Positions 143 to 30,509 of a DNA stretch of 64,000 nt are shown here, piece by piece. The notes beneath the pieces are model-generated. The model was not told the origin of the DNA. It saw nothing but the letters and a program-made list of their open reading frames with translations, and did not search any database. The position numbers and the translations under genes are program-made. Source of the DNA: an uncultured Acidobacteriota bacterium (lineage in GTDB: Bacteria; Acidobacteriota; Vicinamibacteria; Vicinamibacterales; CAVVIG01). How positions within the stretch are numbered: position 1 is the first letter of the stretch; the number at the start of each line of letters is the position of its first letter. Location: contig CAVVPE010000021.1 in NCBI GenBank assembly GCA_963750035.1, forward strand, positions 10,795 through 74,794, given 5' to 3'.

Positions 143-1276
143 GGCCCCCCGTTGAACAAGGTGTGGAAGAATGGCCCGCGCGTGCGAATCGCCCTCGTCG
201 TGACCGGCGGCGTCGATCAGAGCGGCCGCGAAAAGGTGATTCCCGCCGTGCTCTGGCTGATCGAGCGGCTCGCCCGGCAGCACGACGTGTTCGTGTACGC
301 GCTTCGCTACCACGAGCAGCCTTGTTCGTATCCGCTGCTCGGCGCCATCGTCCGCGACCTCGGGCGACCGGCCGGCGCGGTGCGCCATACACCGCGCTCC
401 TGGCGGCGCTCAAGCACGACGGCCCCTTCGATGTGGTCCACGGATACTGGGCGCTTCCAGCCGGTCTCGCCGCGGCGGCCGCGGCGCGGCGCCTCGGCGT
501 CCCGTCGATCGTGACCTGCGACAGCGGGGAGTTCTCGGCCATCCCCGAGATCGACTACGGCCTTCAGATCAGGTGGCGCCAGCGCACGGCTGTTTCAGCC
601 GCGCTGAAGCTGGCGTCACGCGTCACCGTGTGCACGGCCTACATGGAGCGGCTGGCTCGCGCGCACGGCACGATACCCGTCGTGATCCCGCTGGGTGTCG
701 ACGGAAATGTCTTCACACCGCCGGCGCAGCCACCGGCCGGACCACCCTGGCGCCTGCTGAACGTCGCGAGCCTGAACCCGGTGAAGGATCATCGCACACT
801 CATCGAAGCCCTTCGCATCGTCGTCGATCAAGTGGGCGACGTCCATCTCGATCTGGCGGGCGAGGACACGATGCGGCGGCACGTTGCGCGATGCGGTCGC
901 GCGACTGGCAATCGACAATCGCGTCACGTTCCACGGCCCTCTCCCGAGCGACGAGGTCGCAGCGCTCTACCGCCGTGCGCACCTGTTCGTCCTGTCGTCA
1001 CGGCATGAGGCGGCCGGGGTCGTGGCGCTCGAAGCCGCGGCGTCATGCGTGCCGGTCGTCGGCACCTCGGTCGGCTATGTCGCCGACTGGACGCCGCACT
1101 CCGCGCGTGCGGTGCCGCCGGCAGATCCCCGCGGACTGGCCGATGCGATCGTCGGCTTGTTGAACGATCCCGCTGCCCGCCGGCGGCTGGCGTCCTCAGC
1201 CCACGATTGGGCTGTCGCCCACGATGCCGACTGGAGCGCCGCCGAGTTCACCCGGCTTTATGCCAGCCTTGTGTAG
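128..1276 (+). CDS. GT4-family (GT-B) glycosyltransferase, two apparent frameshifts
   Basis: Track ORFs 128..514, 163..1008 and 884..1276 concatenate into one protein: RVRIALVVTGG / DVVHGYWALPAG...IPLGVDGNVF...LNVASLNPVKDH / NRVTFHGPLPSDEVAALYRRAHLFVLSSRHEAAGVVALEAAASCVPVVGT (E-x7-E). Frame switches lie near 385 and at 874 (an extra c after atg 871-873 restores MGGTLRDAVARL). Likely start is GTG 182. Confidence 0.8.
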
Positions 1277-2501
1277 GGGCCACCAGACCGCCGCCTCGCC
1301 CAGCGCGAGACCGGCTGCCGCGCCTGTCGCGCCGAACGACGGGATCAGGACTGCGCACGCCGCCGCCTGCAGCGCGAGCGCGACGGCACTCCACCTCACC
1401 GCCACTGCCTCGAAGCCGGACGCATAGAAGTACACCTTCCGCCCGCTGTTCACGAGCGTGGGCACCAGCCCGATGCCGGTCCAGACGAGCGGCACGACGG
1501 CACCCTCAAAGCCCTCGCCGTAGGTCCACGACACGAGCGGCGCTGCGAACACGATCACGATCGACGCTGAGGCCAGCGCGAACGCCAGCAGCGCTCGATC
1601 GAACCGTGCCCGCACGGCGTCCGACGCGGCGCGCCGGGCTTCGTGCGACAGCACCGGCAGCGCGCCCGCAAACGCCGCCTGTGGCAGCATCCGCACCAGG
1701 CCGCCAAAGCGCGAGGCCACACCGAAGACCGCCACCGCCGCCGGCGCGGCGAGGAAGCCCAGAAGGACCGGCGCGATCCGCTGCTGGGCGTTCGCAATCA
1801 GACCTGCCGCCGCGAACGGCCACGCATCGCGCAGGGTTCGAACGATCGTGACTGGCGATGGCCATTGAATCCGCATCCGCATGCCGGCGACCCGCAACCA
1901 GAGCGCCCACCGCCGCCGCGAATTGCAGCGCCTGCACGGCCGCCGCGAGCAGGAGGAGATCGACAATGCCCCGACCGGCCTGCAGCAGCCACCACGCCCC
2001 AGCCCATTGCGCCAGCGCCCCGGTGGTCTCGATGCCGAGCGTCATCACGAGCGAGCGGGGCCACGCCCGGAAGACCGACGCCAGGCAGCCGTACGCCACT
2101 CCCCCGATGGCAATCAACGGCGCGATGCGGAGGCCCGCGGCCGTGGCGGCATCCGGCGAGAGAAGCGACGGCGCGACGACGAAGAGGAGCGCAAGCGGCA
2201 GCAGCACACCGAGCCGGACCACGAACGCGACCGCCACCGCCTGGCCGGTCGCTGGATCGTCGCGGGCCGCATCGCGCGTGAGCAGCACGCCGAACCCGAA
2301 GTCGACCACCGTGGTCAGGACCGCGGCCCACGCGGTGCAGAGCGTCCAGCGCCCGAAGTCCTCGACGCCGAGCGCGCGGGCGATCACGAGCGACGTGGCG
2401 AACGAAATGGCCGTGCGCGAGAGGTTCGAGGTGGCGAACGCCGCAGACATGCCCACCAGCCGGCCGTACGGCGTCGTGCCGACAGGGTGAAGCGCAGCCA
2501 T
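1196..2501 (-). CDS. Wzx/MOP-type polysaccharide flippase, one apparent frameshift near 1900
   Basis: ORF 1506..2942 read from internal ATG 2501 (MAALHPVGTTPYGRLVGMSAAFATSNLSRTAISFATSLVIARALGVEDFGRW...) joins ORF 1196..1966 (...TIVRTLRDAWPFAAAGLIANAQQRIAPVLLGFL...). The product is multi-TM and hydrophobic. ATG 2501-2499 shares one base with the upstream stop (TGATG). Confidence 0.75.
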
Positions 2502-3737
2502 CAGGACAGGCACTCCACGCCCGGTTCGGCGATCGGACAGCGCGCGATGGCGTGCGCGAGACGGCACGACACCAATCGCTCCGTCTCGTCGATGCTGACC
2601 GGCTGCGCACGCGTCCGCCGGGCCACGAACACCGCGGACAGCGACGGGCAGCCCAGCACGGGCCGGCCGCCCATCGTGACGAGCGCCACATCGCGTCGCG
2701 CGGATCGGACGAGCGCGTCGGCCGGGGTGGGCGCCAGGGGCGGAAGCACGACGAGGTCGGCGGGGAGCCCCGGCGCAATCCTGCCGGCATCCGGCAGCCT
2801 CAGGATCCTCGCGGCCGCTTCCGTGACCATGCGAAGCAGCTCGGTTGCCGAAATGCCTCGGGCGGCCGCGATCCGCAGCTCGTCGAGCAGGTCGCGCGAG
2901 CCGGTGACGCGCGAGTCGCTGCCGAGGCAGATGTGCCGCCACGCATGCCCGTTCGCATCCAGGTGCGCGCGGACCGGCAGCGGTGCGTCCGAACAGAAAA
3001 TCGTTCGACGCCGGACACCAGACGAGGCTCGCGCCGCGTTCCAGGACGCGCTGCCAATCCTCGGTCGGTCATGGCGACGCCGTGGACGATCACGGTGTTC
3101 GGCCGCAGGCAGCCGAGCTCTTCGAGCCGGGCGAGCTCCTCGGCCGCGGCCTCGTCGATGCCTTCGGCCGCGTGGACGATGAACGGCACGTCTGCCGGCG
3201 TCGACGAGGCACCGCTCGCGGACGTCGCCGCCCGGTTCGCCGCGTGCGCCGACCGGCTGCCGTTCGAGCGCGAACGAATGCGCCCACCCGTAGCGGCGCA
3301 GGACGCGGACCGGGAAGCTCCGGCCGATCTCGCGATAGAGCGGGTTGTGATGCGCGACGGTCGTCACGCCCGGCAAGCAGGTTCTTCAGACGCGCCGATG
3401 AACAGGCGTGCCGCCAGCGGGTGGGCGCTGTCCGGCGCGAATCGCCGGATCGTCTGCGCAGCGCCGGCCGCAGGTCGTCGATCCAGGCGGTGGCGTTGTC
3501 GTAGCGATCGCGCCGCTTCAGCCGGCCGTAGTGATTCAGCTCGAGGTGATCGTGCGCGTTGATCAGCCCGGGCAGCACGAACGCGCCGTCGAGATCGACG
3601 ACCATGTCGCCGCGTCGCGGCGGCGTCGCCGACTGACAGGATCCGCGAACCGAACCGCAGCGACGCCGCGACGCCCGTCGGCCGTCAGCGACGCGCGCGT
3701 TGACGAACGCGACCGGCTGCGCCCACGGCAGCATCAC
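2501..3737 (-). CDS. amidohydrolase-superfamily protein, at least 3 frame switches
   Basis: Fragments: ORF 3090..3737 (VVDLDGAFVLPGLINAHDHLELNHYG, metal-binding HxH), ORF 2800..3189 (FIVHAAEGIDEAAAEELARLEELGCLRPNTVIVHGVAMT), ORF 2501..3376 (HICLGSDSRVTGSRDLLDELRIAAARGISATELLRMVTEAAARILRL...GLPADLVVL). Confidence 0.7.
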
Positions 3738-4476
3738 TCGGCCCCGCTCGACGACGTCGAACGTCGAACGACGACGGCGCGCTGACCGGCGCGATGCCGG
3801 GCTTCACCGCGTGAAAGACCACGACGACCGGCGCGGGCCGATCGCGGATCCGCGGCTCGCGGATCGCGCGCACGGCGAGCGGCGACGCCTCGAGCGCCGC
3901 CAGGTGCTCGTCGATCGTGTGCGGAAAGTACGCCAGCTCGACGCGGCGGCCCGTCGGCGTCCGCGGAACGTGCGGCGCCAGCCGCTGCGCCGCCCACGAC
4001 GGATGGAAGTCCGAGTAGACGAGGTGCCCGCCGGGCGCGAGCACGCGCGCCGCCTCGCGCGACCCAGGCGCGCAGATCGTCGACGTCGCCGACCATCAGC
4101 GACGAGCAGACCAGATCGAACGCGGCGTCGCGGAACGGCAGCCGGCAGGCATCGCCGCAGACGCGCGGCGCGTCGCAGGCGGTCCGCGCGTCAGCATCGC
4201 GCAGCGACAGGTCGAGGCCGACGACGACGCGCGCGCCGGCCGACTGCGAGCAGCGGCAGATACCGGCCCGTGCCCGTGCCGACGTCGAGCGCGCGCGCGG
4301 CTGCGCGGCGTCGCGATGAGCGGCGCGACGATCGCCTGCTCGGCCTCCATCAGCGGGTTGTGCGGCCGCGGCGGATAGGTGTCGGCCCAGAGCGCGTAGG
4401 CCTCGCGCGCCGGCAGTGACTCGTGGCGTCGCGAGCGACCCGCAACCACGCGCGAGCCAGCGAATCGCCAGTGCAT
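3734..4476 (-). CDS. class I SAM-dependent methyltransferase, frameshifted
   Basis: ORF 4096..4476 (ESLPAREAYALWADTYPPRPHNPLMEAEQAIVAPLIA), ORF 3734..4096 and ORF 3685..4044 (LAPGGHLVYSDFHPSWAA...VELAYFPHTIDEHLAALEA...VVVVFHAVKPG). Stop TGA 3736-3734 overlaps the next start (GTGATG). Start ATG 4476 lies 1 nt after the upstream stop. Confidence 0.65.
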
Positions 4477-4477
4477 G

Positions 4478-5986
4478 TCAGAACCCCGTCGTTTCCGGCC
4501 GCTGGTAGTGCATCAAGCCGCTGCAGCGCGCGCAGCTCGTAGGGCGCGCGTGTACACCTTGCAGGGCGTACCGCCAGGCGCTCGACCGCCTTGAGCAGCG
4601 CGCGCCGACGCGCGCGTGAGCCGCCGGTCGGTGACCGTCGGATAGAACGCGTTCAGCACCCGCTCGAAGTTGCGGACCCGGCGGCGGATCGCGACCGTCC
4701 AGCCACGGGATGCCGTCGCCGCGGCGCATCATCAGCTGCCGCCACTCGTCCGACGCCCACTCGTCGAGCGTCTGCGGAAACGCGAAACCCGAGCCGCGAC
4801 GCCTCGGCGTACAGCGCGCCGTCCATCGGCACCGGCGTGTAGGTGTAGAGGATGATCTCGGTCGCCGGGTTCACGCGCTTGATCGCGCGGATGAACTCGA
4901 AGGTCTGCGCCATGTCGCCCAGCGGATCGGGCGGCGAGCCGAGGACGAACGAGAACTCCGGCACGACGCCGTAGCTCGCGCATCCGCCGCGCCAGCTCCA
5001 GCGTCGAGGCGCCGCCGAGGCCTTGCCGCCCTTGTTCATCGCCGCCAGCGTGGCGTCGGACGCCGACTCGGCGCCGGAGAACACCATCTTCAGGCCCGAC
5101 CGCGCCATCGCCTGCCACGTCGCGTCGCGAGTACTGCATCAGCGTGTCGACGCGGCCGAGCGCCCACCACGTGATGCCGAGCGGCGCAATGCGCTCGGCG
5201 AACTCCGCGTCGCGCGCTTCGGAGATGAAGAAGTCCATGTCGTGCATCTGCACCGCGTCGACGCCGGTAGCGCTGCGACGAGGTGCCGCAGCGACGCGCT
5301 CCATGCGCGCCGGCGACTGCGCCAGCCAGCGCCGGTTCGTCATCGCGACGACCGCGCAGAAGCTGCACGCGAACGGACAGCCGAACGACGAGTTGTGCGC
5401 GACCGTCCGGCGTGCCGAGGTAGGTCGGATGGAGGTAGCGCTCCATGTCGACGCGGTCGTACGGCAGATCCGGCAGATCGTCGAGCGGCGTCATCGGGCC
5501 CGGCGGGTTGTGGACGATCGCGGCCGTCCGCGTCCTTCCACGACAGGCCGGCGACCGCGGTCGAGCGACGCCGCCCGCTCGCGAGCGCGTCGAGCAGCTG
5601 CGAGGAGCGGCCGCTCGCCCTGCGAGCGGATCGACGAAGTCGACGAACGGCGAGCGCGAGCACCGTGTCGGCGTGCTGCGTCGGAAAGTAGCCGCCCCAG
5701 ACGATCGGCACGTCGCGGCAGCGCGCGCGCGCACCGCGCGGCAGACGGCGACCGCCTGCGTCAGCTGCGGCCCGGGCATCACGGTGACGGCGAGCAGCGC
5801 CAGGTCGCCGGCCCGGCGTCGGATCGCAGACGCCGCGATGATCTCCGCGGCGGATCGCGCGTCGACGTTGCCGTCGACGAGCGTCCACGGCTCGCGTCCC
5901 TCGAGCACCGCGGCCAGCGACAGCAGCGACAGCGGCAGCGGCTGCTTCCCTGGCGTCGTCGACAGCGGGTTGAAGAGGACGATCAT
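4478..5986 (-). CDS. B12-binding-domain radical SAM enzyme, many frame switches
   Basis: N-terminus MIVLFNPLSTTPGKQPLPLSLLSLAAVLEG (ORF 5090..5986). DVPIVWGGYFPTQHADTVL is in another frame. AHNSSFGCPFACSFCAVVAM (CxxxCxxC) is read from 5400-5341. ORF 4653..5108 gives GLKMVFSGAESASDATLAAMNKGGK...VPEFSFVLGSPPDPLGDMAQTFEFIRAIKRVNPATEIILYTYTPVP. Confidence 0.75.
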
Positions 5987-6915
5987 CGGGCCACCCAGAC
6001 GCCGAACGCCGCCGGCGCGCGCCCAGACGCCGACGCGCGCGAGCTGCGCGGCGCAGCCGCCACGCCAGCGGTCCGCGCGATCGGGACGAACCGGCCGCGA
6101 AGCCCGAGCGTTCGGCGACGCGCGCTCGAGCCGCGCGAACGTCAGGAACCCGACGCCCGGCGCGGATCGGCGTCGGCGAGCCCGTGCTCGGCCGCGAAGC
6201 GGCGCTGCTGGTCGTCGACCATCGCCTGCGCCGTCGCGCGTCGCGGCGGAACATCGGCGAGTCCATCACCGCCAGCGCGCCGCCCGGCGCGAGCATGCGG
6301 CGCGCCTCGCGCGAGCGTCGCCGCCGGATCGGTCGAGTAGTGCAGCGAGCCGTCGAACACGACGAGGTCGAACTGCGCGCGGCTCGAACGGCAGCGCGTC
6401 GAAGTCGGCCTGCACCGCCGGAAACGGCACCGGGTAGTGGCGGCACGCGCCCAGCCCATCGGCCTCGTCGTCCAGGCGATCGACGGCGACGACGCGGTGG
6501 CCGAGCGCCGCGAGCCGGTGCGACAGCCAGCCGCAGCCGGCGCCGAGATCGAGGACGCGCATCGGGCCGCGCCAGACCGCCGGCAAGCGCGTGCCGCTGC
6601 AGGTGCGCGTAGCTCTCGCGCCGGATCCGCCACTCGGCCGCCTGCGGATCGTCGGCGGCACCGACGGCAGCATCCGGTAGTAGTCGCGGCGCGTCGGCGC
6701 GATAGCCGTCGCGCTCGCGCACGAGCGCGGTACTGCGTCGACGAACGGCGTCGGCCGCGGCCGCGCGCGCGTCGCGCGTCAGGAAACCGGCAGATGCCGT
6801 CGCGCCGGCTCGAAGCGCCGTGCCGCAGTCGGCAGCAGCGCAGCACGGTCCGCCGGCTCGTCGACTCGGCCGCCGGCCGCCGGCATTCCGGACAGGCGAA
6901 CGCGGCATGCCACAT
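5983..6915 (-). CDS. SAM-dependent methyltransferase with N-terminal Trm112-like zinc ribbon, frameshifted
   Basis: ORF 6142..6915 (MWHAAFACPECRRP; FDLVVFDGSLHYSTDPAATL), ORF 6266..6673 (MRVLDLGAGCGWLSHRLAALGHRVVAVD, motif I), and MLAPGGALAVMDSPMF in the 5340..7211 frame. The last frame ends GVWVAR, with TGA 5985-5983 overlapping the next ATG (ATGA). Confidence 0.65.
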
Positions 6916-6922
6916 GTCGGCA

Positions 6923-7787
6923 TCAGCGCTCCTTGCTCAGCACGATCGAGAAAGTGATCGCCCCAGCGTGCCGAACCCCGGCCACGCGCCGACCGCGTCG
7001 TCGAGGCGCTCGAGCGCGCGCGACGAGCGCCGGATGGCGGTCGGCAAACGCCTGCAGGTACGGCGGCGGCACGAACAGGCCGAGCGCTCGCAGCGACACG
7101 CGCGTGAACCCGGCGCGCTCGAACACGCCGCTCGAACTCCGCCGGGCGTGTAGTACCGCGTCCAGACCGTGCGGCCGTTCGAGCGGCACCGGCGACGCAC
7201 GCCGCGCGCAAAGCGGATCGCGGCCCGCGGCCAGTCGCCGCGCGACGCGTACAGCGCGATCTCCCACGGGCACACCCGGCCGATGACCGACGCGACCAGC
7301 ACGCCGCCCGGCCGCAGGCGTCGCGCGATCAGCCGCGCTGCGCGCTGCGAGATCGGCGACGCAGTTGAGCGGGCCGAAGTTCGAGCAGGCGCGCGTCGAA
7401 CGCGCGCCGGCGCCAGCGCGATCGAGCTCGTGGATGCCGAGGTGATGGACGTCGACGCGATCCGCGCACGCCGCCTGCGCACGCGGCGGCGCGCCTCGTC
7501 CACCATCGCCGGCGACCAGTCGATCGCCGGTGACCCGGTAGCCGTGCGCGCGCGAGCGCCTCGGCGTCGGTGCCCGGACCGCAGCCGAGGTCGAGGACGT
7601 GCGACGCCGCGCGGCACGTGCGCGCTGCACCGCCGCGAGCGCTCGCCGCCGCATGCCGCACAAGCGTCGCGGTTCTCGGCGTTCGAGCGGTCGTAGCTCG
7701 GCCGCGACGCCGTCGAAGGCGCGCTGCGTGTCTCGGCAGCGGCCACGCGCTCGACTGCCACGGCGCGTTCCTCCAGCCGGTCTTCAT
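6923..7787 (-). CDS. class I SAM-dependent methyltransferase, frameshifted
   Basis: HVLDLGCGPGTDAEALA (ORF 7329..7796), IDWSPAMVDEARRRV and RLRPGGVLVASVIGRVCPWEIALYASRGDW (6937..8091 frame), SNFGPLNCVADL and the end GAITFSIVLSKER (ORF 6923..7663). ATG 7787-7785 overlaps the upstream stop (ATGA). Confidence 0.65.
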
Positions 7788-8812
7788 CGAGCACACGCAG
7801 CGGCCGCAGACCGGGTTGCGTGCCGACGTCGAGCGTCTGCGCGGAACGCCGGCAGGTTCGTCGCGCGACGATCGTCGCCAGCGGCGCCTCGCGGATGTTG
7901 CCGATCGGCTCGTGAAAGAAGCAGGGCCGCACGACGCCGTCCGCCTCGATCACGACCGACATCCACGGCGCGTTGCAGGCGACCGGCGGAAACGGCGCCG
8001 TCGCCGGCGAGCGCGGCGTAGTACTGCGGCAGCCGCCGCAGCTTCGTCCGGCGACTCGGCGACGAAGCCCGGACTCGAAGTCGTCGCGCATGCGTCGACG
8101 ATCGTCTGCTCGACGATCGCCGCGAACTCGGCGATCTCGCCGGCGGTCGAGCGCCAGACCGCCGCCGGCGTCGGCGCGCCGCGTCGCGGCCGAACGCCGG
8201 CGACGACACGTCGGCGGCGAGAAACGAGATGCCGTCGAGCGCCATCGCCCTCGCGTGATCGATGAGCCGCGGCAGCTCGCGGAAATTCAGCCGGTGCAGC
8301 GTCGCGCGCGCGGTGACCGGCACGTCCGGCGCGAGCCGGCGCAGCCGCGCGACCCCTCGCTCGACCAGTCGCCAGCGCCGCGACGCCGCGGACGGCGTGA
8401 TAGAGCGCTTCGGTCGACGGCGTCGAGCGACACGATGACGCGGGAGAACTGCCGCGGCCACGTCGGCGGCGCACCGCTCGAGCAGCACGCCGCTCGTCAG
8501 CAGGTGCAGCGTCATGCCCGTGCGCGCGGAACAGCCGCGCCGCGTCGAACACCTCCGGCCGCAGCAGCGGCTCGCCGCCCGAGAACACCACGAGCGCGCG
8601 TGCCGAGCGCCGGCAGCGCGTCGGCGAGCCGCTCGATCTCGTCGAGCGTCAGGTCGTCGGCGCCGCTGCGACTTCCACCAGTCGCACGACACGCAGCGGC
8701 TGTTGCAGCGGCTGGTCGGAAAGAAGACCAGCAGCGGCAGGACGAACGTCGGTTCGTCGACCTCGCCGAGCCGCACGAGCAGTCGCCGTCGGCGAGCGCC
8801 TCGATGCGTCAC
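7784..8812 (-). CDS. radical SAM enzyme with SPASM/twitch-type C-terminus, frameshifted
   Basis: FFPTSRCNSRCVSCDWWKS (CxxxCxxC, ORF 7784..8812), MVFSGGEPLLRPEVFDAARLFRAHG (ORF 7950..8591), ACNAPWMSVVIEADGVVRPCFFHEPIGNIREAPLATIV (6937..8091 frame), and NPVCGRCVCS in a third frame. Confidence 0.75.
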   Translation of the reverse strand: MTHRGARRRRLLVRLGEVDEPTFVLPLLVFFPTSRCNSRCVSCDWWKSQRRRRPDARRDRAARRRAAGARHARSWCSRAASRCCGRRCSTRRGCSARTGMTLHLLTSGVLLERCAADVAAAVLPRHRVARRRRPKRSITPSAASRRWRLVERGVARLRRLAPDVPVTARATLHRLNFRELPRLIDHARAMALDGISFLAADVSSPAFGRDAARRRRRRSGARPPARSPSSRRSSSRRSSTHARRLRVRASSPSRRTKLRRLPQYYAALAGDGAVSAGRLQRAVDVGRDRGGRRRAALLLSRADRQHPRGAAGDDRRATNLPAFRADARRRHATRSAAAACAR

Positions 8813-10362
8813 CGCGCTGATCCGCTCGGACGCACGGCCTGCCGGCTGCTCGCGGGGTCGACGGCAGCGTGGCGGGTGAGCGACCGGCGGCGGCGCGAGC
8901 CGTGTCAGCGCGCCAGGCGCCTGACGCGTGCAGCTGGCGAGCGCACGACGCGCGCGACGCCGTGCGCAGACCGCGGCGCCGCGGTCGCGCGACGCGACGT
9001 GCGCACGCGCCGAGCGCTTCGCGCGCGCGGAACTCGGCGTGCACGAGCGCGTGCAGCGCGCGGTAGAACTCCGGCGCGTAGGTCGCGCGATACATCATCG
9101 CGAGGTCGTTCGAGTCGACCCAGTTCTGCTTCTCGCCGAGCTGCGCCTTGACGCGCTCGTAGAACGGCGTGCCCGGCAGCGGATACGACACCGACACGCC
9201 GATGTCGTCCGGCCGGCAGTCGCGCACCATCTGCAGCGTCAGCTCGATGTCCTCGCGCGTCTCGCCCGGATAGCCGAACTGCAGGAAGAACCCGACCTCG
9301 ATGCCCGCCTCGTGCAGCCGGCGCGGCGCCTCGGCGATCTGCTCGACGCGCGTGCCCTTCTCCATCGCGTCGAGGATGCGCTGCGATCCCGACTCGGCGC
9401 CGATCCAGGCCGTCCGGCAGCCGGCGGCGCGCGAGCGCCGCGACGACGGCGTCGGATCACGCCGTCGGCGCGCAGCAGGCACTTGAACGGCACGCGCGCG
9501 CCGCGCGACGATCGCGAGTCGCGCGAACCGCTCGATCCAGCCCGGCTTGAGGCCGAAGATGTCGTCGGCGATCCAGAGATGGTCGGGCTGGTAGGTGCGC
9601 CTTCAGCCACGCGATCTCGTCGACGACGTGCTCGGGCGATCGGGCGGTGTAGCGCTGGCCGTAGATCGGCTTCGCGCACCAGTTGCAGTGATACGGGCAG
9701 CCGCGCGTCGTCGACGATGTTCATCGAGAAGTAGCCGTGGCGCCGCTGCCAGATCGCGCGATACCGCTCGACGTCGACGAGATCCCAGGCCGGCCGCGGC
9801 AGCGCGTCGAGATCGCGGATGATCTCGCGCGGCCGGCGTCCGGATGATGCGCGCCGTCGCGCGCTCGCGCAGCACGAGTCCGCGGCACGTCTTCGCAGCG
9901 ATCTGATCGCGTCCGCCCGCTGCAGCACGTCGAGCAGCTCGACGAGCGTCACCTCGCCTTCGCCCGACGACGACCGCGTCGGCGCCCGCGTCGAGGTACA
10001 GCTCCGGGTGGTCGCTCGCGTCCGAGCCGGCGACGATGACGGCGATGCCCCGCGTCGCGCGCCGCGTCGATCATCGTCAGCGCCGCCTGGCGCATGCGGA
10101 GCAGGCACATCTTGCTCAGGTAGTTGAAGTTGTCTTCGTAGATGACCGCGAAGCGCGGGCGATGCGCGATCGAGCGCCGCCGCCCACTCGGCCTCCGACT
10201 CCGCGAGCATCGCGTCGAAGAGCGCGACGCAGTAGCCGTGCGCGCGCACGGCAGGCCGCCGCGTACAGCGCGCCGAGCGGCGGGTACGGCTGCCGCGGCG
10301 TCCCAGAGCTTCGGGTCGAAGCGCAGGAAGTACGCCTGGCCGAAGAGGACGTCGGCGGTCAC
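8809..10362 (-). CDS. B12-binding-domain radical SAM enzyme (second copy), frameshifted
   Basis: ORF 9949..10362 (MTADVLFGQAYFLRFDPKLWDA...RFAVIYEDNFNYLSKMCLLRMRQAALTMIDAARDAG). TTRGCPYHCNWCAKPIY (CxxxCxxC) is read around 9715-9665. ORF 8649..9482 gives AWIGAESGSQRILDAMEKGTRVEQIAEA...GFFLQFGYPGETREDIELTLQMVRDCRPDDIGVSVSYPLPGTPFY. TGA 8811-8809 overlaps the next GTG (GTGA). Confidence 0.75.
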
Positions 10363-10368
10363 GGACGC

Positions 10369-11615
10369 TCACGGTGCTCGAGGTTCACTGGGTGCTCGGC
10401 GCGCTCGGGGTTCTGCGGCGACATGGGGACGGCCGACAGGCCGTCTCGACGGCCGCGTCCGCATAGCGGCACGGGTGCCGTGCCGCGCCGCCCGAGCGAC
10501 GTCTGGCGGTAGACCTCGAGCGTCTCGCGCGCGGCGCGCTCCCACGAGAACGTCGCGCGATCGCTGCAGGCCGAGCGCCGACAGGTGCTCGCGCCGCTCG
10601 CGGCTGCGCGCCAGGCGCGACCAGCGCCTCGCCGAGCGACGTCGGCTCGAGCGCGATCGACGTGCTCGACCGCGCCGCCCGCCGACTTCCGCCAGCGCCG
10701 GACGTCGCCCGGTGATGACCGGCGTGCCGCAGGCCATCGCTTCGATGACCGGCAGGCCGAACCCTTCGTAGATCGACGGGAACACGAACATCTCCGCCAG
10801 GCTGTAGAGCGCCGGCAGATCCTCGAACGGCACGTACCCGGTGAACCGGATCGCGTCCTCGACCTGCAGCCGCTCGATCCGGTCCTCGATGTCGCGGCTC
10901 AGCCAGCCGTACGGGCCGGCGCAGACGAGCTGATGCGGCAGATCGCCGCGACTTCCGCCGCTTGCGCGAACGCCTCGATCAGCTTCGGCAGGTTCTTCCG
11001 CGGCTCGATCGTGCCGACGTAGAGGATGAACGCGGTCGGCCAGGCCGTACCGCCGCCGCACGCGCTCGAGCTCGATCGAGATCGTGCACGCGGCGGAACG
11101 ACGGCGCCGCCGCCTCGTGGACGACGTGCACGCGCTCGGGCGGAGGCCGTAGAGGCGGACGATGTCGCGCTTGGCGCTCTGCGAGACCGTGATGATGGCG
11201 TCGGCGCGCCGCGCCGCGAGATCGACCAGCGGCCGGTTGAGCAGCACGCGCCGCGGCGGATGGTAGCGCGGGTAGAGCGTCAGGCTCATGTCGTGGATCG
11301 TCACGACCGTCGGCACCGGCGACGCCAGCGGCACCATCCCGTTGGTGAAGTGCACGACGTCCGGCCTGCATCGTGCCGCAGCAGCCGCGGCGCCAGCGTC
11401 TGCATCCAGACCATCCGCGGCGATCCGCCACGACGAGCGTCGCGATCCGCACGCTGCGACGGCAGCGGGCGCGTCGTGTCGACCGGCCGGTTCGAGATGA
11501 CGACGACTCGTCGTCGCCGGCCCTGCGCCGCGAGGTGGTGCAGCAGGTGCTCGGTGTAGTAGCCGACGCCGGTGCGGCCCGGCCGCAGCGTCGTGCCGTC
11601 AAATGCGATGCGCAT
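10369..11615 (-). CDS. GT4-family glycosyltransferase, frameshifted
   Basis: From ATG 11615 in the 11301..11999 frame (MRIAFDGTTLRPGRTGVGYYTEHLLHHLA), then ORF 10369..11355 (VVTIHDMSLTLYPRYHP...AIITVSQSAKRDIV...FVFPSIYEGFGLPVIEAMACGTPVITG, E-x7-E). Confidence 0.8.
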
Positions 11616-13357
11616 GCGGCCAATGCCGCTGAAGCTGAGCAGGCCGAGAGTGACGGCAATCAGGATGTAGGTGGCGGTGAAGCTGAGGAACGAGTCGACG
11701 AGGCCGTGCAGCGCGATCGCGAGCGTCGCGGCGGCGATCGCTCCAACCGCTGGCTCCAGTGACGTGCCGCGCGATGCCCGCACGGCGGCGGCAAGTTGCC
11801 TGGCGGCGGCCCAGCACAACCACGCGAACGCGGCGCCCCCGATGATTCCTCCACCGACCAGCATCTCGATGTACATGTTGTTGCTGTGCACGCGGCGATC
11901 GAAGTTCGACAGGCCAGCATACTCGCCGTACAGCAGCCGGTAGTTGTCGGGTCCGACGCCGAGCGAGCGGCCGCGTCGCCAGCAGGCTGGCAGCGGCACG
12001 CCAGAGCACGAGCCGGCCGGGCCTCACGGGTACTGGTCGGCAGCGTCATGCGGTAGGCCCTCAGCGAGGGACCAATCGCCGGTCCTGAGACGGCGACACG
12101 CGTCACATAGAGAGGCGCCTCGGGTTCGGTGCTGAACCAGAGTCGGTCGCTCTGCTCCACATCCCACATGAGCCGGTATTCACCCGGTTCAGGAGGCGCC
12201 TCGACATGAGCGTCGAGCCTGATTGACGCCCCGGGCGGCACAGGTACTGGAAATGGCGTTCGAAGTCCTTCCCAGCTGACAACGATATCTTCGTCGGCAA
12301 GCAGCCAGTGGTAGGAGAGCTGAAATGGCTGCGGCGCCGACGAATTCCATGTCGCGCCACCGGTGTTGCGAAGGCGAACGGGCACCGCCGACTGGCTTCC
12401 CGTCCCCAGTTGGAGCCGAACCGGCGCCTGGATCTCGGCCCGGAACCACGCCTCCAGCGTCTCCGTCGTCAGCCTGAGACGCAGGTACTCGGCTGATCGC
12501 GACGACAGCAGTTGCACGGCGAAGACGGCTGCAACAACTCCCAGGACCGCTATGCCGCGATCGAACCCGGCACGCCGATAACGCAGCCACGCGACCACGG
12601 CCAGCGTCGAGGCGACGGTAATCAGGCCGGATCGAGTAAACGTGAAGATGATTCCCTGCGTGATGACCACGGCGAGGACGCCAAACATCACGACAGCGGC
12701 CCGGCGCCTGGAGTCGATTGCCAGCCCGATTGCGAACGCGAAGGCAATCTCCAGAAACATCGACGCGATCGTCGGATACTGAAGCGGGCCGCTCGCGCGG
12801 ATCTGGGATCCCGCGAGCGCAACCCAGGGCCGGAACAGGGCGAGAAACCGGAGGGCTGGTTCGAAGGCAAGATACTCGAGCACCGCGAGAACAGCGACCC
12901 CGGCGCCTGCGGCCGCCGTGGCGATGAGGATGGTCCGCAGCCGAGCCGCGGAGAGGACGCCGTTGACGGCAAGCAGGTACACTCCGAATGCCAATCCGAG
13001 GCGCCCGACCATATTGAGGGCGTTGTTCCGGTGCGCGGGCGCTGCCAACGCGGCGGCAAGCATCGCGCCGACGACGAGCAGCCAGGGTAACGTGAGTGAC
13101 GTCCGCCAGGCTGGAAGCGTGCGCGTCGCGAGAAGTGCGAGAACCCAGGCGCCAAGCGCGGCGATTAGCGCGGCTTCGACGGTGCTCAGCGATTGGCCGG
13201 GAAAGGTGACCAGCGGCCGCAGCGCCTCGAACGGCGCAACCAACACGAGCGCGCAGAGACTGACACACGCGACGGTTGCGACGGTCGCCTGGCTGTCGGC
13301 TTTCGAGCGGGCCAGCGCTGCGCGGGAGGATAAGCCCGGCGCCGCGACAAGAGACAT
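11616..13357 (-). CDS. O-antigen ligase/polymerase-like membrane protein with an inserted Ig/NBR1-like soluble domain; frame switches near 12030 and 11965
   Basis: ORF 11660..13573 read from ATG 13357 (MSLVAAPGLSS...). It has many TM segments (LPWLLVVGAMLAAALAAPAHRNNALNMVGRLGLAFGVYLLAVNG...IFTFTRSGLITVASTLAVVAWL). A soluble beta-rich block follows (VRLRNTGGATWNSSAPQPFQLSYHWLL...PGASIRLDAHVEAPPEPGEYRLMWDVEQSDRLWF). The C-terminal TM part is in ORF 11301..11999 (GPDNYRLLYGEYAGLSNFDRRVHSNNMYIEMLVGGGIIGGAAF). There is no in-frame stop before the GT4 ATG at 11615. Confidence 0.7.
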
Positions 13358-13598: not shown

Positions 13599-15767
13599 AT
13601 GAGAACGGCTGCGCTCGTCGCTTACCGGGCAGCGTCCGACGTCGTCGGCAAGGCCGCGTTCTTCGTCGTGACGATCGTCGCGGCGCGCCGGCTCTCGTCC
13701 GAGGGGTTTGGCGTGTTCGCGCTCGGCACGACGATCGGATGGATGGCCGTCGTCGCCAGCGACTTCGGGTTGCAGATGCACCTGGCCCGCGCGGTCGCGC
13801 GCGCGCCTGACGCGGCCGGGTACGAATTGCGGAAGTGGCTGCGCGTGCGCGTCGTCCTCGCGGGCGCCGCGCTCGTCGTCGTGGCCATCTCCCTCGCCGC
13901 CTTCGACGGATCGCGGCACGCTCCGGCAATCATGCTCTTCGTCCTCGGGTATCTCGCGGCCGGCCTGGTCGAGTTCGTCCATTACTTTTATCGTGGCCTG
14001 TCGCGGACCGACATCGAGTCGACGCTGACGCTCTGGCAGCGGCTCGGGACGCTGGCCGCCGCGTGCATCGCGTTATGGGTGAGGCCCGACGCCGCAACGC
14101 TGGCCGCGGCCATGGTCGTGCCTCCCCTCGCGACCGCCGTGTACACGGTGCGGCTCGCTGCCGGCATGGGACGTGCTACTGCATCGCCTGGCCCCCCGGT
14201 CCAGTCACCGCTTTCGGAATTCGTCCGCGACGTGGCGCCGGTCGGCGCCGGCATCCTGCTCTCGGCGCTGTACTTCCGAATCGACGTGTTCCTGCTGGAG
14301 GCGTGGCAGGGCACGGAAACCGTCGGCCTCTACAATTCGGCGTTCCGAATCGTCGAGGCGCTCCGGCTCTTCCCGGCCGCGCTCCTCGCGGTGATGCTTC
14401 CACGCCTTGTCCGCGCGGCGAATCCCCGTCCACTCGTTCAAATGGCAGGCGCGCTGACGGCGTTCGGCATCGTGGCGGCGGTTGCACTCTGGCTCGCCGC
14501 GGACCGCCTGGTGCCGGCGCTGTACGGACCCTCATTTGCGGACGCCGTGCCCGCACTCCAGGTGCTCGCCGCGGCTTTTCCGCTGATGTCGCTGAACTAC
14601 GCGCTGACGTATCAGCTGATCGCGTGGAACGGGCACCGCGCGTACGCCGCGCTGTGCCTGGCGGCGCTCGTCTTCAACGTCGCGTTGAACGCGCGATGGA
14701 TCCCGGCCATGTCGTTGAACGGGGCGGCGTGGTCGACGCTCGCGACTGAAGCGCTGCTCACCGCCGGTTGCGCCGGCATCTTGAGCGCGGCGTCCCGCGC
14801 CGGCCGCGGCGATGGCGACGACATGAGGGCGGCCGCCAAGATCCTCCGGCATCCGGCGATTCCAACCGCCGGCCTGACGAGCGACGAGCTCGCCATCGCG
14901 CGCAGCGTCGTCTATGCCTCGCTGTTCGATTACCCGCTGACGCTGGCGCAACTGCGGCAGACGCTCATCGAATCGATCCAGACGCCGTCGCAGGTGCTCG
15001 CCACCTACAACGGGAGCGCGGCGCTGCAGGAGGCGATCGAGTTCCGCGATGGGTTCTTTTTCCCCAGGGGCCGCCCCGATCTCATCGAGGAGCGGCGGCG
15101 CCGCGAGTCGCGCAGCCGCACGTTCCTCCGCCGACATCGGCTCCTCCTGCAGCTCGCCTGCGCACTCCCCAGCGTGCGGATGGTGGCGCTGTCGGGCAGC
15201 ATCGCGCACCTGAATCTGGAAGGGACCGGCGACCTCGACCTGTTCATCGTCACGCGCGGCCGCCGCGTCTGGAGCACGACGGTCGCTGTCCTGATTCTCG
15301 CGAAGCTGATGCGGCGCCGTCGAATCGTCTGCGCCAACTTCGTCGTCGCCGACACCCGGCTCGTCCTCGAGCAGCAGGATCTGTTCGCCGCCAGCCAGGT
15401 GATCCACCTGAAACCGCTGATCGGACGAGATGTCTTCCTCCAGCTGCTCGACAAGAATCCGTTCGTGTTCCGTTTTTACCCCAACTTTCACGCGGCGGAC
15501 GCCGCATCGCTGCCGTTCCGGCCGAGCCGCGTGCTCGGCTGGATGAAGACCGTGCTGGAGACGGCGCTCGCGCCGGTCGCCCCGCTCGGCGAGCTGGTCT
15601 GCCGATCCGCGTACCGCGCGTACCTGCGCCGCCGGGCGGCGACCTGGCGGTCGCCCGACCAGGTCCGGCTGCAGGCCGACTGCCTGAAGCTCCATACGCA
15701 GAGCCACCGCCAGTCGGTCCTCGATCGACTGGAAGCGGGAATTTCAGATTTAAGATTTAAGATTTAA
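13599..15767 (+). CDS. Wzx/MOP-type flippase fused in frame to a Pol-beta-like nucleotidyltransferase-fold domain
   Basis: ORF 12918..15767 trimmed to ATG 13599 (MRTAALVAYRAASDVVGKAAFFVVTIVAARRLSSEGFGVFALG...), because the 5' extension is antisense to the ligase gene. About 400 aa are multi-TM. From the internal ATG 14823 comes a soluble domain with LSGSIAHLNLEGTGDLDLFIV (GS...DxD). The frame is intact. The last 10 codons (GISDLRFKI) lie inside the AT-rich repeat. Confidence 0.75.
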   Translation: MRTAALVAYRAASDVVGKAAFFVVTIVAARRLSSEGFGVFALGTTIGWMAVVASDFGLQMHLARAVARAPDAAGYELRKWLRVRVVLAGAALVVVAISLAAFDGSRHAPAIMLFVLGYLAAGLVEFVHYFYRGLSRTDIESTLTLWQRLGTLAAACIALWVRPDAATLAAAMVVPPLATAVYTVRLAAGMGRATASPGPPVQSPLSEFVRDVAPVGAGILLSALYFRIDVFLLEAWQGTETVGLYNSAFRIVEALRLFPAALLAVMLPRLVRAANPRPLVQMAGALTAFGIVAAVALWLAADRLVPALYGPSFADAVPALQVLAAAFPLMSLNYALTYQLIAWNGHRAYAALCLAALVFNVALNARWIPAMSLNGAAWSTLATEALLTAGCAGILSAASRAGRGDGDDMRAAAKILRHPAIPTAGLTSDELAIARSVVYASLFDYPLTLAQLRQTLIESIQTPSQVLATYNGSAALQEAIEFRDGFFFPRGRPDLIEERRRRESRSRTFLRRHRLLLQLACALPSVRMVALSGSIAHLNLEGTGDLDLFIVTRGRRVWSTTVAVLILAKLMRRRRIVCANFVVADTRLVLEQQDLFAASQVIHLKPLIGRDVFLQLLDKNPFVFRFYPNFHAADAASLPFRPSRVLGWMKTVLETALAPVAPLGELVCRSAYRAYLRRRAATWRSPDQVRLQADCLKLHTQSHRQSVLDRLEAGISDLRFKI

Positions 15768-25139: not shown

Positions 25140-27734
25140 ATGAGATCGGATCAATCAGATCACAGGGAGTTTCGTCGCGTTCATCATCGCGGCGCTGCCG
25201 ATGCTGGCCGCCGGCCAGGACGCTCGCCCGGGCCCAGTACCTCGTCGTCCGGGATTCGTCGGGCGCGGCCATGCCCGGCGTCACCATCAAGATCATCAAT
25301 GAAGTCACCACGGCCGGCATCGAAGGCGTGAGCGATGCCGAAGGCCGCTATCAGGCGGGTCCGCTCATCGCCGGTCCGTACCGTGTCGAGGCCATGCTGG
25401 ACGGCTTCGAGCCGGTCCTGCGCAGGGTCGCGATCGACGACGCTCAAACGAGCGCGATTGAGCTGACCCTTCACCCGTCGCGGCTCTCGGAGTCGGTGGT
25501 GGTGACCGCGCGGCGCGTCGAAGAGGTCGCGCAGGAGGTGCCGATTCCGGTGTCGGTGGTCAGCGGCGCGCTCGCCGCCGCGACCGGCAGCTTCAACGTC
25601 AACCGCCTGAAGGAGCTGATCCCGACGGTTCAGTTCTACTCGTCCAACCCGCGCAACACGGCGATCAACATCCGCGGCCTCGGCGCGCCGTTCGGCCTCA
25701 CCAACGACGGCATCGATCCTGGCGTCGGTTTCTATATCGACGGCGTTTACTACGCGCGGCCGGCGGCGGCCACTCTGGATTTCATCGATCTGGAGCGGAC
25801 CGAAGTGCTGCGCGGTCCGCAGGGCACGCTCTACGGCAAGAACACGACTGCAGGCGCCATCAACATCACCACGCGCAAGCCGACGTTCGCGCCGGAGAGC
25901 CGGATCGAGCTCACGTTCGGCGGCCTGGATCTGGTGCAGGCGAAGGCCTCGGCCTCGGGACCTCTGTCGCAGACGGTGGCCGCACGACTCTCGTTTTCGG
26001 GCACGACGCGACGCGGGACGATCGGCCACGTCGGCACCGGCGAGGACCTGAACGGGCTGAACAATCTCGGCTTCCGCGGACAGGTCCTCTATACGCCCTC
26101 GTCGAAGACGGCGGTGACCCTCTCCGCCGACAACACGCGGCAGCGCCCGCGCGGCTATGCGCAGGTGGTCGCCGGTGTCGCGCCGACTGAGCGCGTCGCG
26201 AGTCGCCAGTACGCGCAAATCGCCGCCGACCTGCACTACAGCCCGCCGAGCTTCGACGCCTTCGATCGGCTGAGCGATGCCGACACCCCGCACCGCGCAG
26301 ATCAAACTCTCGGCGGCGCCTCGGTGGCGATCGAACGGGCGCTCGGCGCCGGTCGCCTGACGTCGATCACCGCCTGGCGCTATTGGGATTGGGACCCGTC
26401 GAACGATCGCGACTTCCTCGGCCTGCCGGTGACCACCATCTCGGCGAATCCCTCGACACAGCGGCAGTGGACGCAGGAGGTGCGCTACTCCGGCAGTGCT
26501 GGGCACGACATCGGCGTCGTCGCCGGCGCGTTCCTGTTTCACCAGACGATTGATTCGACCGGACGACAGGAGCAGGGTGCGGCGGCCGCGCGCTTTCTGC
26601 TCGCGCCGACCCCAGCAGCCGCGACACCCGGCCTGCTCGATGGCTACGGTCAGACCTCGGACATTCACTCGAGCAACCTCAGCGCGGCGCTGTTCGGCCA
26701 GCTCGAATGGCCGGTCACCGACCGCCTGCGCCTCCTGCCCGGTCTCCGCTTCAACTACGACGACAAAGCCGTCGACTACCGCGCCGAGGTCTATGGTGGA
26801 CTTGCCACGGATGATCCCGTGCTCGTCGCACTGCAGCGCTCGATCCTGGCGCCCCAGGCCTATCAGGCCGGCGCCGCAGACACCAACCTCTCCGGCCAGT
26901 TGACCGCCGCCTACCGGCTGAACCCCCGCATGAACGGCTACGCGACCTACGCGACGACTTACAAGCCAATCGGGTTGAATCTCTCCGGGGTGCCCACCGA
27001 CGCGTTGGGCCGCCCAGCCCTCGAAGTCGCCGCGGTGAAGCCCGAGCAGGAGCGGCATCTCGAGGCCGGACGTCAAGACCGAGCCGGCGCCCGGCATCAC
27101 CGCGAATGTCACCCTCTTCGACACAAACATCCGCGACTACCAGGCGAACGTCGTCAACGCGCAGGTCGGCGTGCTGCGCGGCTACCTCGCCAACGCCGAG
27201 GAAGTGCAGGTGCGGGGCGTCGAGGTTGACAGTAGCGTGCGCGTCAGCCGGAGGATGTCTGTCTACGCCGCGGTCGCCTACACCGAAGGCAAGTACGTCT
27301 CATTCCCCGATGCGCCGCCGCCGCTCGAGGAGACCGGCGGCCCGCAGGTGAAGGACATCTCCGGCTCGGACCTCCCCGGCATCTCCCCCTGGGCGCTCTC
27401 GATCGGGGGCGAGTACGCGCAGCCGGCGGCCCTATTCGGCACGCGAGGCGAGGTGTTCGCCGGACTCGACGGCAGCTATCGCTCGTCGTTCTCGTCGAGC
27501 GCCACCGCGTCGCGATTCCTCGTCATCGACGGCTACGGGCTGCTGAACGCCCGCCTCGGATATCGCTGGGGGGACGGCTGGTCGCTGTCATTCTGGTCGC
27601 GCAATCTGCTGGACCAGGACTATTTCGAACTGCTGTCGGCGGCGCCGGGCGGCTCCGGATTGTACGTCGGGCTGCCAGGCGATCCCCGCACGGTTGGCGT
27701 ATCGCTGCAGATAGCCATCCCATCGAACAAGTGA
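25140..27734 (+). CDS. TonB-dependent receptor with N-terminal carboxypeptidase-regulatory-like domain, frameshifted
   Basis: The signal peptide [17 protein letters not shown] is in a neighbouring frame. ORF 25106..27229 gives [23 protein letters not shown]...[22 protein letters not shown], then the plug [22 protein letters not shown]...[28 protein letters not shown] switch near 27070 leads to ORF 27171..27734 (barrel end ...[10 protein letters not shown]...DQDYFELLS...). Confidence 0.8.
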
Positions 27735-28772: not shown

Positions 28773-28799
28773 TGGCAGACGCCGTCCGCTCGGTCGTTC

Positions 28800-30491: not shown

Positions 30492-30509
30492 AACCGTTCT
30501 GGTGAGCTG

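Follow-up and report, generated by a model that had tools for sequence, protein, structure and literature searches.

We analysed a 64,000-nucleotide stretch of DNA, hereafter the window, from an uncultured Vicinamibacterales bacterium of the phylum Acidobacteriota (positions 10,795 to 74,794, forward strand, of contig CAVVPE010000021.1, assembly GCA_963750035.1). Its left end carries ten minus-strand genes (1196-13357), which a first-pass annotation had read as one translationally coupled operon mixing glycan assembly genes with three radical S-adenosylmethionine (SAM) enzymes and three methyltransferases. Our data bear out this operon, and every stop/start overlap and cysteine motif listed for it was found.

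A ten-gene operon with a divergent partner gene

The genes were identified by Pfam searches of the open window fragments and by comparison with intact collinear orthologues in a genome of the same genus (G001; 93% complete, 6 contigs) and in a metagenome contig from the ENA (L095). On the open fragments, Pfam placed a family 4 glycosyltransferase (GT4), Radical_SAM, SPASM, amidohydrolase and MurJ/Polysacc_synt pieces where they were expected, and together with the orthologues these matches support the gene identities proposed earlier. In the order of transcription, the genes are as follows, with the two flanking genes last.

11600..13357, minus strand: gene 1, Wzy_C/WaaL-like polytopic membrane protein, about 590 amino acids (aa); the start of the L095 orthologue aligns to the ATG at 13357
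10369..11615, minus strand: gene 2, GT4 glycosyltransferase, about 409 aa (Pfam Glycos_transf_1 and Glyco_transf_4)
8809..10362, minus strand: gene 3, rSAM1, radical SAM enzyme with B12-binding domain, CPYHCNWC, about 504 aa (PF02310 and PF04055 in orthologues)
7784..8812, minus strand: gene 4, rSAM2, twitch/partial-SPASM radical SAM enzyme, CNSRCVSC, about 345 aa (PF04055 and PF13186)
6923..7787, minus strand: gene 5, MT1, class I SAM methyltransferase, about 270 aa (Methyltransf_11/25 in orthologues)
5983..6925, minus strand: gene 6, MT2, class I methyltransferase with an N-terminal CPEC...CASC zinc ribbon, about 300 aa
4478..5986, minus strand: gene 7, rSAM3, second radical SAM enzyme with B12-binding domain, CPFACSFC, about 498 aa
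3734..4476, minus strand: gene 8, MT3, class I methyltransferase, about 237 aa
2501..3737, minus strand: gene 9, metal-dependent amidohydrolase, COG0402 deaminase type, about 407 aa (PF01979)
1196..2503, minus strand: gene 10, Wzx/MOP-family flippase (Polysacc_synt), about 435-451 aa, with one frameshift only
13599..15767, plus strand: divergent gene, second Polysacc_synt flippase in one frame with a nucleotidyltransferase (NTase)-fold protein of about 320 aa
141..1276, plus strand: convergent GT4 glycosyltransferase, also frameshifted; position conserved in L095

The 3' end of gene 1 overlaps the start of the GT4 gene (ATG 11613-11615). The remaining minus-strand junctions read TGA 10369-10371 with GTG 10360-10362; GTGA 8809-8812; ATGA 7784-7787; TGA 6923-6925 with ATG 6913-6915; ATGA 5983-5986; TGA 4478-4480 with ATG 4474-4476; GTGATG 3732-3737, previously placed at 3734-3737; TGATG 2499-2503; and the Wzx stop at 1196-1198. 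A TGATG overlap is also present at 6921-6925 and could be the true start of MT2. The intact L095 operon uses the same types of junction (ATGA, TGATG, TGAnATG or overlaps of 10-17 nucleotides), and the translational coupling is therefore conserved and not a by-product of frame repair. The intact orthologues keep the CPYHCNWC and CPFACSFC motifs, CNSRCVSC with its Cys-rich tail, and the CPEC...CASC ribbon of MT2. A promoter and terminator scan returned fewer sites than in shuffled controls. The extent first given to the functional unit was too small, since the divergent flippase/NTase-fold gene belongs to it too.

Conservation and gene fusions tie the operon to glycan assembly

Species-representative genomes were scanned with rSAM1, which returned at least 540 relatives, and 80 loci were kept. 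Among these, a collinear operon recurs in about 18 Acidobacteriota/Vicinamibacterales metagenome-assembled genomes (MAGs) from independent studies. The operon genes are intact and identical in order in the congener, and L095 carries the whole locus gene for gene, including the divergent flippase with the 320-aa protein and the convergent GT4. MT2 is missing in four of the loci (L018, L019, L022 and L025). A 100% complete genome from another family of the order (G013) has GT4, a methyltransferase, four radical SAM enzymes with B12-binding domain (B12-rSAMs), a methyltransferase, an amidohydrolase and an rSAM/SPASM enzyme. Chloroflexota loci contain an rSAM1 orthologue (56-64% identity) with extra B12-rSAM paralogues, methyltransferases, rSAM3 and the SPASM enzyme in rearranged order, and in the two that were inspected the neighbours of this block on its flanks are Wzy_C, GT4 and a GT-C glycosyltransferase of PMT type. 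Thus the adjacency of the genes, which the first-pass annotation had singled out for checking, is kept. Public metagenomes contain at least 8000 rSAM1 homologues (E <= 1e-30), which bear only generic automatic names, and our literature search found no paper on this gene cluster.

Moreover, GT4 and rSAM1 are naturally fused. Two in-frame GT4::rSAM1 fusions, 888 and 890 aa long, come from short-read contigs in which the other operon genes are intact, in 10 related loci no stop separates the pair, and high-quality genomes of the order contain open frames of 880-1000 aa for the pair. About 12 fusion clusters were found among the database homologues of rSAM1. A further fusion, in L096, was discounted because that long-read contig is visibly frameshifted. 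As Rosetta-stone evidence, the fusions indicate a shared substrate or pathway for GT4 and rSAM1. The collinear Acidobacteriota loci and the Wzy_C, GT4 and GT-C partners in Chloroflexota make the link to glycoconjugate assembly a strong one.

The frame breaks of the window copy are assembly errors

The region 1196-13357 is minus-strand coding throughout, and a Viterbi path based on the periodicity of GC content at third codon positions changes frame about 40 times between 1253 and 11973. Mapping intact proteins onto the window by tblastn blurred the frame boundaries because this high-GC DNA is without out-of-frame stops, and gene-by-gene DNA alignments were used instead. Compared with the intact genes of the congener, the window has 95 one-base insertions, 8 one-base deletions and 16 two-base insertions. 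In total, 132 frame-breaking indels lie between 1908 and 12485, with an insertion-to-deletion ratio of about 12:1; about 18 of these frameshifting indels fall in the GT4 gene, whose DNA matches that of the congener at 89% mean column identity and at 81% over aligned sites. The inserted single base is C in 44 and G in 37 of the 95 cases (81/95), mostly in a C[G]C or G[C]G context, and only 17/95 stand next to an identical base. A three-way comparison of the window, the congener and L095, which are about equidistant, showed that the frame-breaking indels are specific to the window: 116 insertions and 9 deletions, compared with 2+6 and 2+5 in the relatives.

The substitutions are anomalous as well. 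From GT4 to MT3, window-specific changes run 272 to G/C and 244 to A/T, whereas the relatives show 166:536 and 168:465. The error-dense genes (2500-11600) have a GC content of 72-76%, compared with 66-69% in the intact orthologous operons and in the genome as a whole. The lower-GC Wzy and Wzx genes are nearly without indels or GC-biased substitutions. Because the intact operons have the same GC content as their flanks (0.66-0.69), the 0.72-0.76 of the window belongs to the anomaly and does not point to horizontal transfer; a horizontally acquired "GC island" was rejected on this ground and on the restriction of GC-biased changes to the error-dense genes. The consensus errors thus seem to include substitutions besides the C/G insertions, inflating local GC.

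Could the operon instead be a decayed pseudogene array in this organism? About 125 frame-breaking indels do stand in the deposited sequence. Their spectrum, with its 12:1 excess of insertions and its C/G bases in CG context, is unlike natural indel spectra, and the neighbouring lower-GC genes are nearly clean. The substitution rate at third codon positions (0.37, compared with 0.18 and 0.18 at the other two) is the pattern of purifying selection. When the L095 frame is projected on the window, its 3958 codons retain 67-85% aa identity (69% in MT1) and hold only 2 stop codons, both at alignment edges; internal nonsense codons are thus absent. Similar patches are found elsewhere in the genome: 124/700 five-kb bins (18%) have at least 8 same-strand frame switches. 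Some switches are ordinary gene boundaries, so that the median, 3 per bin, serves as the baseline. The density of switches climbs from 0.7 per bin at a GC content of 0.60-0.63 to 11.7 at 0.70-0.72 (Spearman 0.49). Even the single-copy gene rpoB (G000:C2:14126-18334, minus strand) is split over two frames, one covering profile positions 3-331 and 961-1238 and the other 326-939. The indel errors therefore span the assembly and reach essential genes, which accounts for its completeness estimate of 59% (0.29% contamination, 25 contigs). We consider real decay highly improbable. The evidence that the frame breaks are assembly errors, and that the operon is intact in the organism, is strong but indirect.

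The first-pass annotation had rightly seen that the frames needed repair; it understated how much (some 125-132 indels across 1908-12485) and did not recognise a genome-wide artefact. The outcome it had named as fatal, a dead operon with real frameshifts, is contradicted by the evidence above. More generally, patchy GC-biased insertion errors can mimic pseudogenisation, depress completeness estimates and raise local GC.

A second patch with dense same-strand frame switches (about 17) occurs in the window at 27058-31567 on the plus strand, presumably through the same artefact; the remainder of the window is clean. The congener assembly also has some indel errors, as its Wzy_C gene is split into two overlapping open reading frames (ORFs; L014:2237-4137) and its divergent flippase into two pieces (L014:4285-5548).

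Taken together, we read the window as one copy of a conserved envelope-glycoconjugate tailoring operon of the Vicinamibacterales, intact in the organism and corrupted in the assembly, with a probability of about 0.68.

A predicted ligase, two flippases and GT4

The orthologue of gene 1 in the congener matches Wzy_C (PF04932) with 42.2 bits against a gathering score of 31.7, that in L030 reaches 51.4 bits, and for L095 the match is precomputed; the window fragment alone scores 19.6 bits because of the frameshifts. An AlphaFold2 model built from 15 orthologues (mean predicted local distance difference test score, pLDDT, 84; predicted template modelling score, pTM, 0.81) had WaaL (7TPG) as its top Foldseek match, with a template modelling (TM) score of 0.62 on the target, followed by NBR1 (4OLE) and CARDB (2KL6). 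Residues D491, R493 and H495, in a periplasmic R-x-H-S-N-N-x-Y-L-E motif, are invariant in the 15 orthologues. By model and motif, gene 1 is a Wzy_C/WaaL-like protein and a predicted ligase. The protein (11616-13357; L095:2525-4303) also has, as an insertion into a periplasmic loop, an NBR1/CARDB-like beta-sandwich of about 130 aa, which is conserved in the same orthologues. PF01943 (Wzx) is found in both gene 10 and the divergent gene, and the NCBIfam matches of GT4 include MshA, N-acetylglucosaminyl-PG synthase and MGlcDAG synthase.

With the Wzx/Wzy loci for O-antigen, exopolysaccharide or capsule and with WaaL ligation, the operon shares Wzx/MOP flippases, a WaaL-like Wzy_C protein, GT4 and a patchy distribution. 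It differs from them in that half of its genes encode radical SAM enzymes, methyltransferases or a deaminase-type enzyme, none of which is part of the usual set, and in the domain inserted in its Wzy_C protein. A chain-length regulator and the genes that begin and end such a pathway are also absent from the locus: among the Pfam-labelled genes at the L095, L096, L097 and JGI contig loci we found no initiating phosphoglycosyltransferase, no polysaccharide co-polymerase (PCP; Wzz/Wzc) and no outer-membrane polysaccharide export protein (OPX; Wza). The classical Wzx/Wzy polymer pathway is therefore incomplete, which keeps a glycolipid alternative alive and counts against our reading.

Radical SAM enzymes and methyltransferases outside characterised families

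The orthologues of rSAM1 (PF02310 36.4 bits, PF04055 64.6 bits) and rSAM3 (43.9 and 42.1 bits) have the class B architecture, with an N-terminal B12-binding domain and a CX3CX2C core. As for curated families, the best NCBIfam scores were HpnJ (132 bits, cut-off 578) and BchE (132 bits, cut-off 481) for rSAM1, BchE (114 bits, cut-off 481) for rSAM3, NirJ (66 bits, cut-off 515) for rSAM2, and the DVU_1556 family (65 bits, cut-off 155) for MT3. Both B12-domain enzymes lie outside the characterised equivalogs, among them HpnJ, BchE, HpnR, PhpK, GenK-like enzymes and MgmA. The family classification that the first-pass annotation had called for thus assigned the radical SAM enzymes to no characterised NCBIfam family. 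The nearest solved relatives of rSAM1 are MgmA (9CCB), AprD4 (second best, E about 1e-15), CysS, OxsB and TokK. AprD4, HpnJ, BchE and OxsB are non-methylase relatives, and class B enzymes also carry out ring contractions, cyclisations and dehydrations; as AprD4 illustrates, a B12-binding domain alone is no proof of B12 use. The class B sugar tailors GenK, GenD1, Fms7 and MoeK5, like AprD4, resemble rSAM1 and rSAM3 in the B12 domain, the CX3CX2C core and a carbohydrate context. The kinship is remote, however, and the enzymes described here sit in an envelope-glycan operon, in which rSAM1 is often fused to GT4.

rSAM2 had been described as a SPASM-type enzyme. Its CNSRCVSC motif and Cys-rich C-terminus are present, and Pfam scores the domain as SPASM (34 bits, threshold 21.5). 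Nevertheless, the cysteines invariant in 27 orthologues are C35, C39 and C42 and, beyond these, only C273, C291, C328, C331 and C333 (C-x17-C...C-x2-C-x-C), that is, five C-terminal cysteines in place of the seven of the SPASM motif. In profile searches its best PDB match was BlsE (7.6e-18), followed by MoaA and PqqE, and the C-terminal domain aligns to the twitch domain of BtrN. BlsE, BtrN and MoaA act on sugars, cyclitols or nucleotides, not on peptides; along with AprD4, as enzymes for sugars, nucleosides or small molecules, they count in favour of our reading. rSAM2 therefore shares its core with BlsE and its twitch Cys pattern with BtrN, and differs from this group in the extra invariant C333 and in being called SPASM by Pfam; its nearest relatives are not peptide maturases.

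These enzymes could also be read as maturing a ribosomally synthesised and post-translationally modified peptide (RiPP) or a glycopeptide, with the Wzy_C protein acting as a PglL-like O-oligosaccharyltransferase. Proteusin-type and other RiPP pathways typically use B12-rSAM C-methylases and SPASM enzymes, MgmA, the best solved relative of rSAM1, methylates protein, and Wzy_C domains are found in protein O-glycosylation enzymes. A precursor gene, however, has no room in the operon: once the start of MT2 is corrected, the intact junctions are of at most 16 nucleotides or overlapping, and the divergent region (50-290 nucleotides) holds no conserved small ORF in 16 loci. We found no peptidase, RiPP recognition element or peptide exporter genes at the L095-L097 and JGI contig loci. 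These results uphold the earlier statement that no small ORF resembling a precursor peptide is seen, and together with the twitch-like rSAM2 they led us to reject the peptide reading, to which we give next to no credence.

A further alternative deserves more weight, namely that the operon tailors a glycolipid head group carried by a membrane lipid such as a hopanoid, a membrane-spanning lipid or a diacylglycerol, and makes neither a polymer nor a ligated glycan. It has parallels in HpnI/HpnK/HpnJ (cyclitol ether), in a glycosyltransferase with calditol synthase, and in the Gms/Gmm/Grs pairs that tailor lipids. Glycolipids are a frequent product of GT4 enzymes, and the matches of the operon GT4 named above count in favour. 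Its missing PCP, OPX and phosphoglycosyltransferase genes and the weak match of rSAM2 to the lipid enzyme GDGT-MAS (7TOL) point the same way. SPASM/twitch enzymes are paired with B12-rSAMs in archaeal lipid tailoring (PMC11214058; PMC13459092). The closest precedents are HpnI/HpnK/HpnJ and archaeal Cds, in which a glycosyltransferase and a radical SAM enzyme remodel a lipid-linked sugar (PMC13459092), and HpnJ shares the top NCBIfam score of rSAM1 with BchE. At 132 bits against 578, however, rSAM1 is not a member of the HpnJ family, and scores for other lipid families are likewise far under their cut-offs. The amidohydrolase is not an HpnK- or NagA-type deacetylase, and no hopanoid or tetraether genes lie nearby. 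Furthermore, the two Wzx-type flippases and the WaaL-like ligase conserved in Acidobacteriota indicate that a lipid-linked glycan is exported and transferred. We thus regard a head group as an unlikely product, although one to be taken seriously, and retain the envelope glycoconjugate as our reading.

A deaminase-type amidohydrolase

The gene 9 product had been called simply an amidohydrolase. PF01979 supports this, and the assignment can be narrowed to the purine/pyrimidine deaminase type (COG0402). H60, H62, H185, E188, H215 and D270, invariant in 12 orthologues, make up the COG0402 set of HxH, H-x-x-E, beta-6 His and beta-8 Asp. Its best PDB profile matches are 8-oxoguanine, methylthioadenosine (MTA), MTA/S-adenosylhomocysteine (SAH), guanine and aminofutalosine deaminases and also chlorohydrolases, at E 1e-12 to 1e-16 and aligned mainly over the C-terminal half. 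By NCBIfam cut-offs it lies outside the named equivalogs (MTA/SAH, guanine, 8-oxoguanine and aminofutalosine deaminase), the best score being TRZ/ATZ hydrolase at 60 bits against a cut-off of 540. The operon enzyme therefore has the metal-binding and catalytic set of the COG0402 deaminases, DadD included, while scoring about 60 bits where the family cut-offs are 300-540. A sugar deacetylase role of NagA or HpnK type was rejected, as no NagA-type enzyme is among the matches listed. DadD and MtaD clear SAH and 5'-deoxyadenosine. To our knowledge, no glycan locus has been described in which a COG0402 deaminase shares an operon with six enzymes that consume SAM.

An NTase-fold protein is the most constant partner of rSAM1

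A homologue of the NTase-like protein is present in 70 of the loci examined, directly upstream of rSAM1 in Chloroflexota and beside the divergent flippase in Acidobacteriota. Across 26 sequences from the two phyla, G125, D137 and D139 (G-S...D-x-D) and several other residues are invariant. In a structural model (pLDDT 90), a core of about 120 residues superimposes on MntA and AadA with a TM score of 0.5-0.56 on the target and E >=0.05. Foldseek found no structural match for the whole chain, and no Pfam family fits, the best being Polbeta at E 0.21. The protein nevertheless has the hG[GS]...D-x-[DE] motif on a minimal NTase core of the Pol-beta-type fold.

In an Anaerolineae MAG (L026:7857-9995), the NTase-like protein is fused to GT4 in a frame of 712 aa directly upstream of rSAM1. 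Together with the GT4::rSAM1 fusions of Acidobacteriota, this NTase-like::GT4 fusion forms a network linking NTase, GT4 and rSAM1. The window itself has the flippase and the NTase-fold protein in one 722-codon frame (13599-15767), while L095 and the congener have separate, ATGA-coupled genes; the ATGA is retained in the window, and the shared frame is due to a length difference of about 20 nucleotides in the poorly conserved flippase tail. Judged from the sequence, this fusion may be real or an artefact.

A functional analogy is offered by fosfomycin biosynthesis, in which the nucleotidyltransferase Fom1 provides the tagged substrate of the class B methylase Fom3. Fom3 acts on cytidylylated hydroxyethylphosphonate (HEP-CMP), so that a class B radical SAM enzyme can need a nucleotide-tagged substrate (PMC8158854). 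Of the neighbours of rSAM1, the NTase-fold protein with its intact motif is the one kept most constantly in the two phyla, and by analogy with Fom1/Fom3 this suggests a nucleotide-tagged intermediate. The resemblance is one of function only, as the NTase-like protein is without a Pfam family or a whole-chain structural match.

The same analogy could be turned towards a diffusible secondary metabolite of nucleoside or aminoglycoside type, comparable to blasticidin, gentamicin or fosfomycin, which the glycosyltransferase, the twitch enzyme, the methylases, the deaminase and the NTase-type modifying enzyme would assemble, with the membrane proteins serving export or self-resistance. The nearest solved relatives include BlsE (blasticidin), AprD4 (apramycin), CysS and TokK, the amidohydrolase belongs to the nucleobase-deaminase group, and the NTase-like core resembles the aminoglycoside adenylyltransferase AadA as well as MntA. 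These similarities are remote, however (E 1e-9 to 1e-19 for the sugar- and nucleoside-acting relatives and weaker for TokK), and no core biosynthesis genes for sugar nucleotides or aminocyclitols were found at the locus. The genes for the WaaL-like ligase and the Wzx flippases keep strict synteny and translational coupling with those for the enzymes, and GT-C and Wzy_C partners occur in Chloroflexota too. We consider a diffusible metabolite very unlikely and keep to a glycoconjugate of the envelope.

A model for tailoring of an envelope glycoconjugate

We propose the following pathway. At the cytoplasmic face of the membrane, GT4 would attach a sugar to an acceptor anchored there, which is probably a sugar or oligosaccharide linked to polyprenyl phosphate. 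The two B12-domain enzymes, the twitch enzyme rSAM2 and the three methyltransferases would modify the sugar in the cytoplasm, in reactions that could be C-, O- or N-methylation or a radical rearrangement such as deoxygenation, decarboxylation or ring contraction. The NTase-fold partner may nucleotidylylate the substrate. The amidohydrolase may edit a nucleobase or amidine group, or it may remove the inhibitory by-products SAH and 5'-deoxyadenosine. Wzx would then export the product, and the WaaL-like Wzy_C protein would move it to its final acceptor.

Methylation, which the first-pass annotation had favoured together with possible cross-linking, is a plausible candidate in view of the three class I methyltransferases and two class B-type enzymes. 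Judged from their relatives, ring contraction, dehydration or rearrangement is equally open, and HpnJ, Cds, AprD4 and OxsB offer precedents for these (PMC13459092).

Several points beyond the incomplete Wzx/Wzy set weigh against our reading. The sugar, the acceptor, the order of the steps and all of the chemistry are what we infer, and methylation by the B12-domain enzymes is assumed from the behaviour of their class. None of the radical SAM enzymes, methyltransferases or amidohydrolase reaches any curated NCBIfam cut-off. The verdict on the frame breaks is indirect, drawn from sequence comparison and not from reads. Moreover, the locus is accessory, with an rSAM1 orthologue in 25/301 genomes and 19/120 genera of the order, and no cultured carrier was identified; several complete genomes of the order are among the carriers. 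A patchy accessory distribution is usual for surface-glycan loci.

A more specific proposal joins these elements. In it, the operon would be the Acidobacteriota form of a pathway in at least two phyla, in which a new NTase family nucleotidylylates a lipid-linked sugar to provide GT4-tethered class B radical SAM enzymes with a handle, in the way that Fom1 serves Fom3. The twitch enzyme and the methylases would help to build a C-methylated, deoxygenated or carbocyclic sugar, which would be flipped and ligated into the envelope, and the nucleobase would be edited, or its disposal aided, by the COG0402 deaminase. Two of the most abundant soil phyla would then share a previously unknown class of envelope glycoconjugate. 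Taken as a whole, this conjunction is quite doubtful.

In terms of novelty, the locus is a glycan assembly locus with a previously undescribed tailoring block of radical SAM, NTase and deaminase enzymes, of which the window copy is an error-laden representative. Vicinamibacterales and Chloroflexota rank with the most abundant bacteria of soil, and almost nothing is known of the chemistry of their envelopes. The examples of radical SAM tailoring of carbohydrates described to date come mainly from antibiotic pathways and from a small number of lipid head groups; if the substrate is a lipid-linked sugar, such tailoring would enter primary envelope biogenesis. The natural GT4::rSAM1 fusion would provide a tractable biochemical entry point.

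Genes downstream of the operon

The convergent GT4 gene downstream of the operon lies in two pieces in the window, 163-1008 and 884-1276. In L095, the convergent GT4 gene is followed by another glycosyltransferase gene and a Mur ligase gene.

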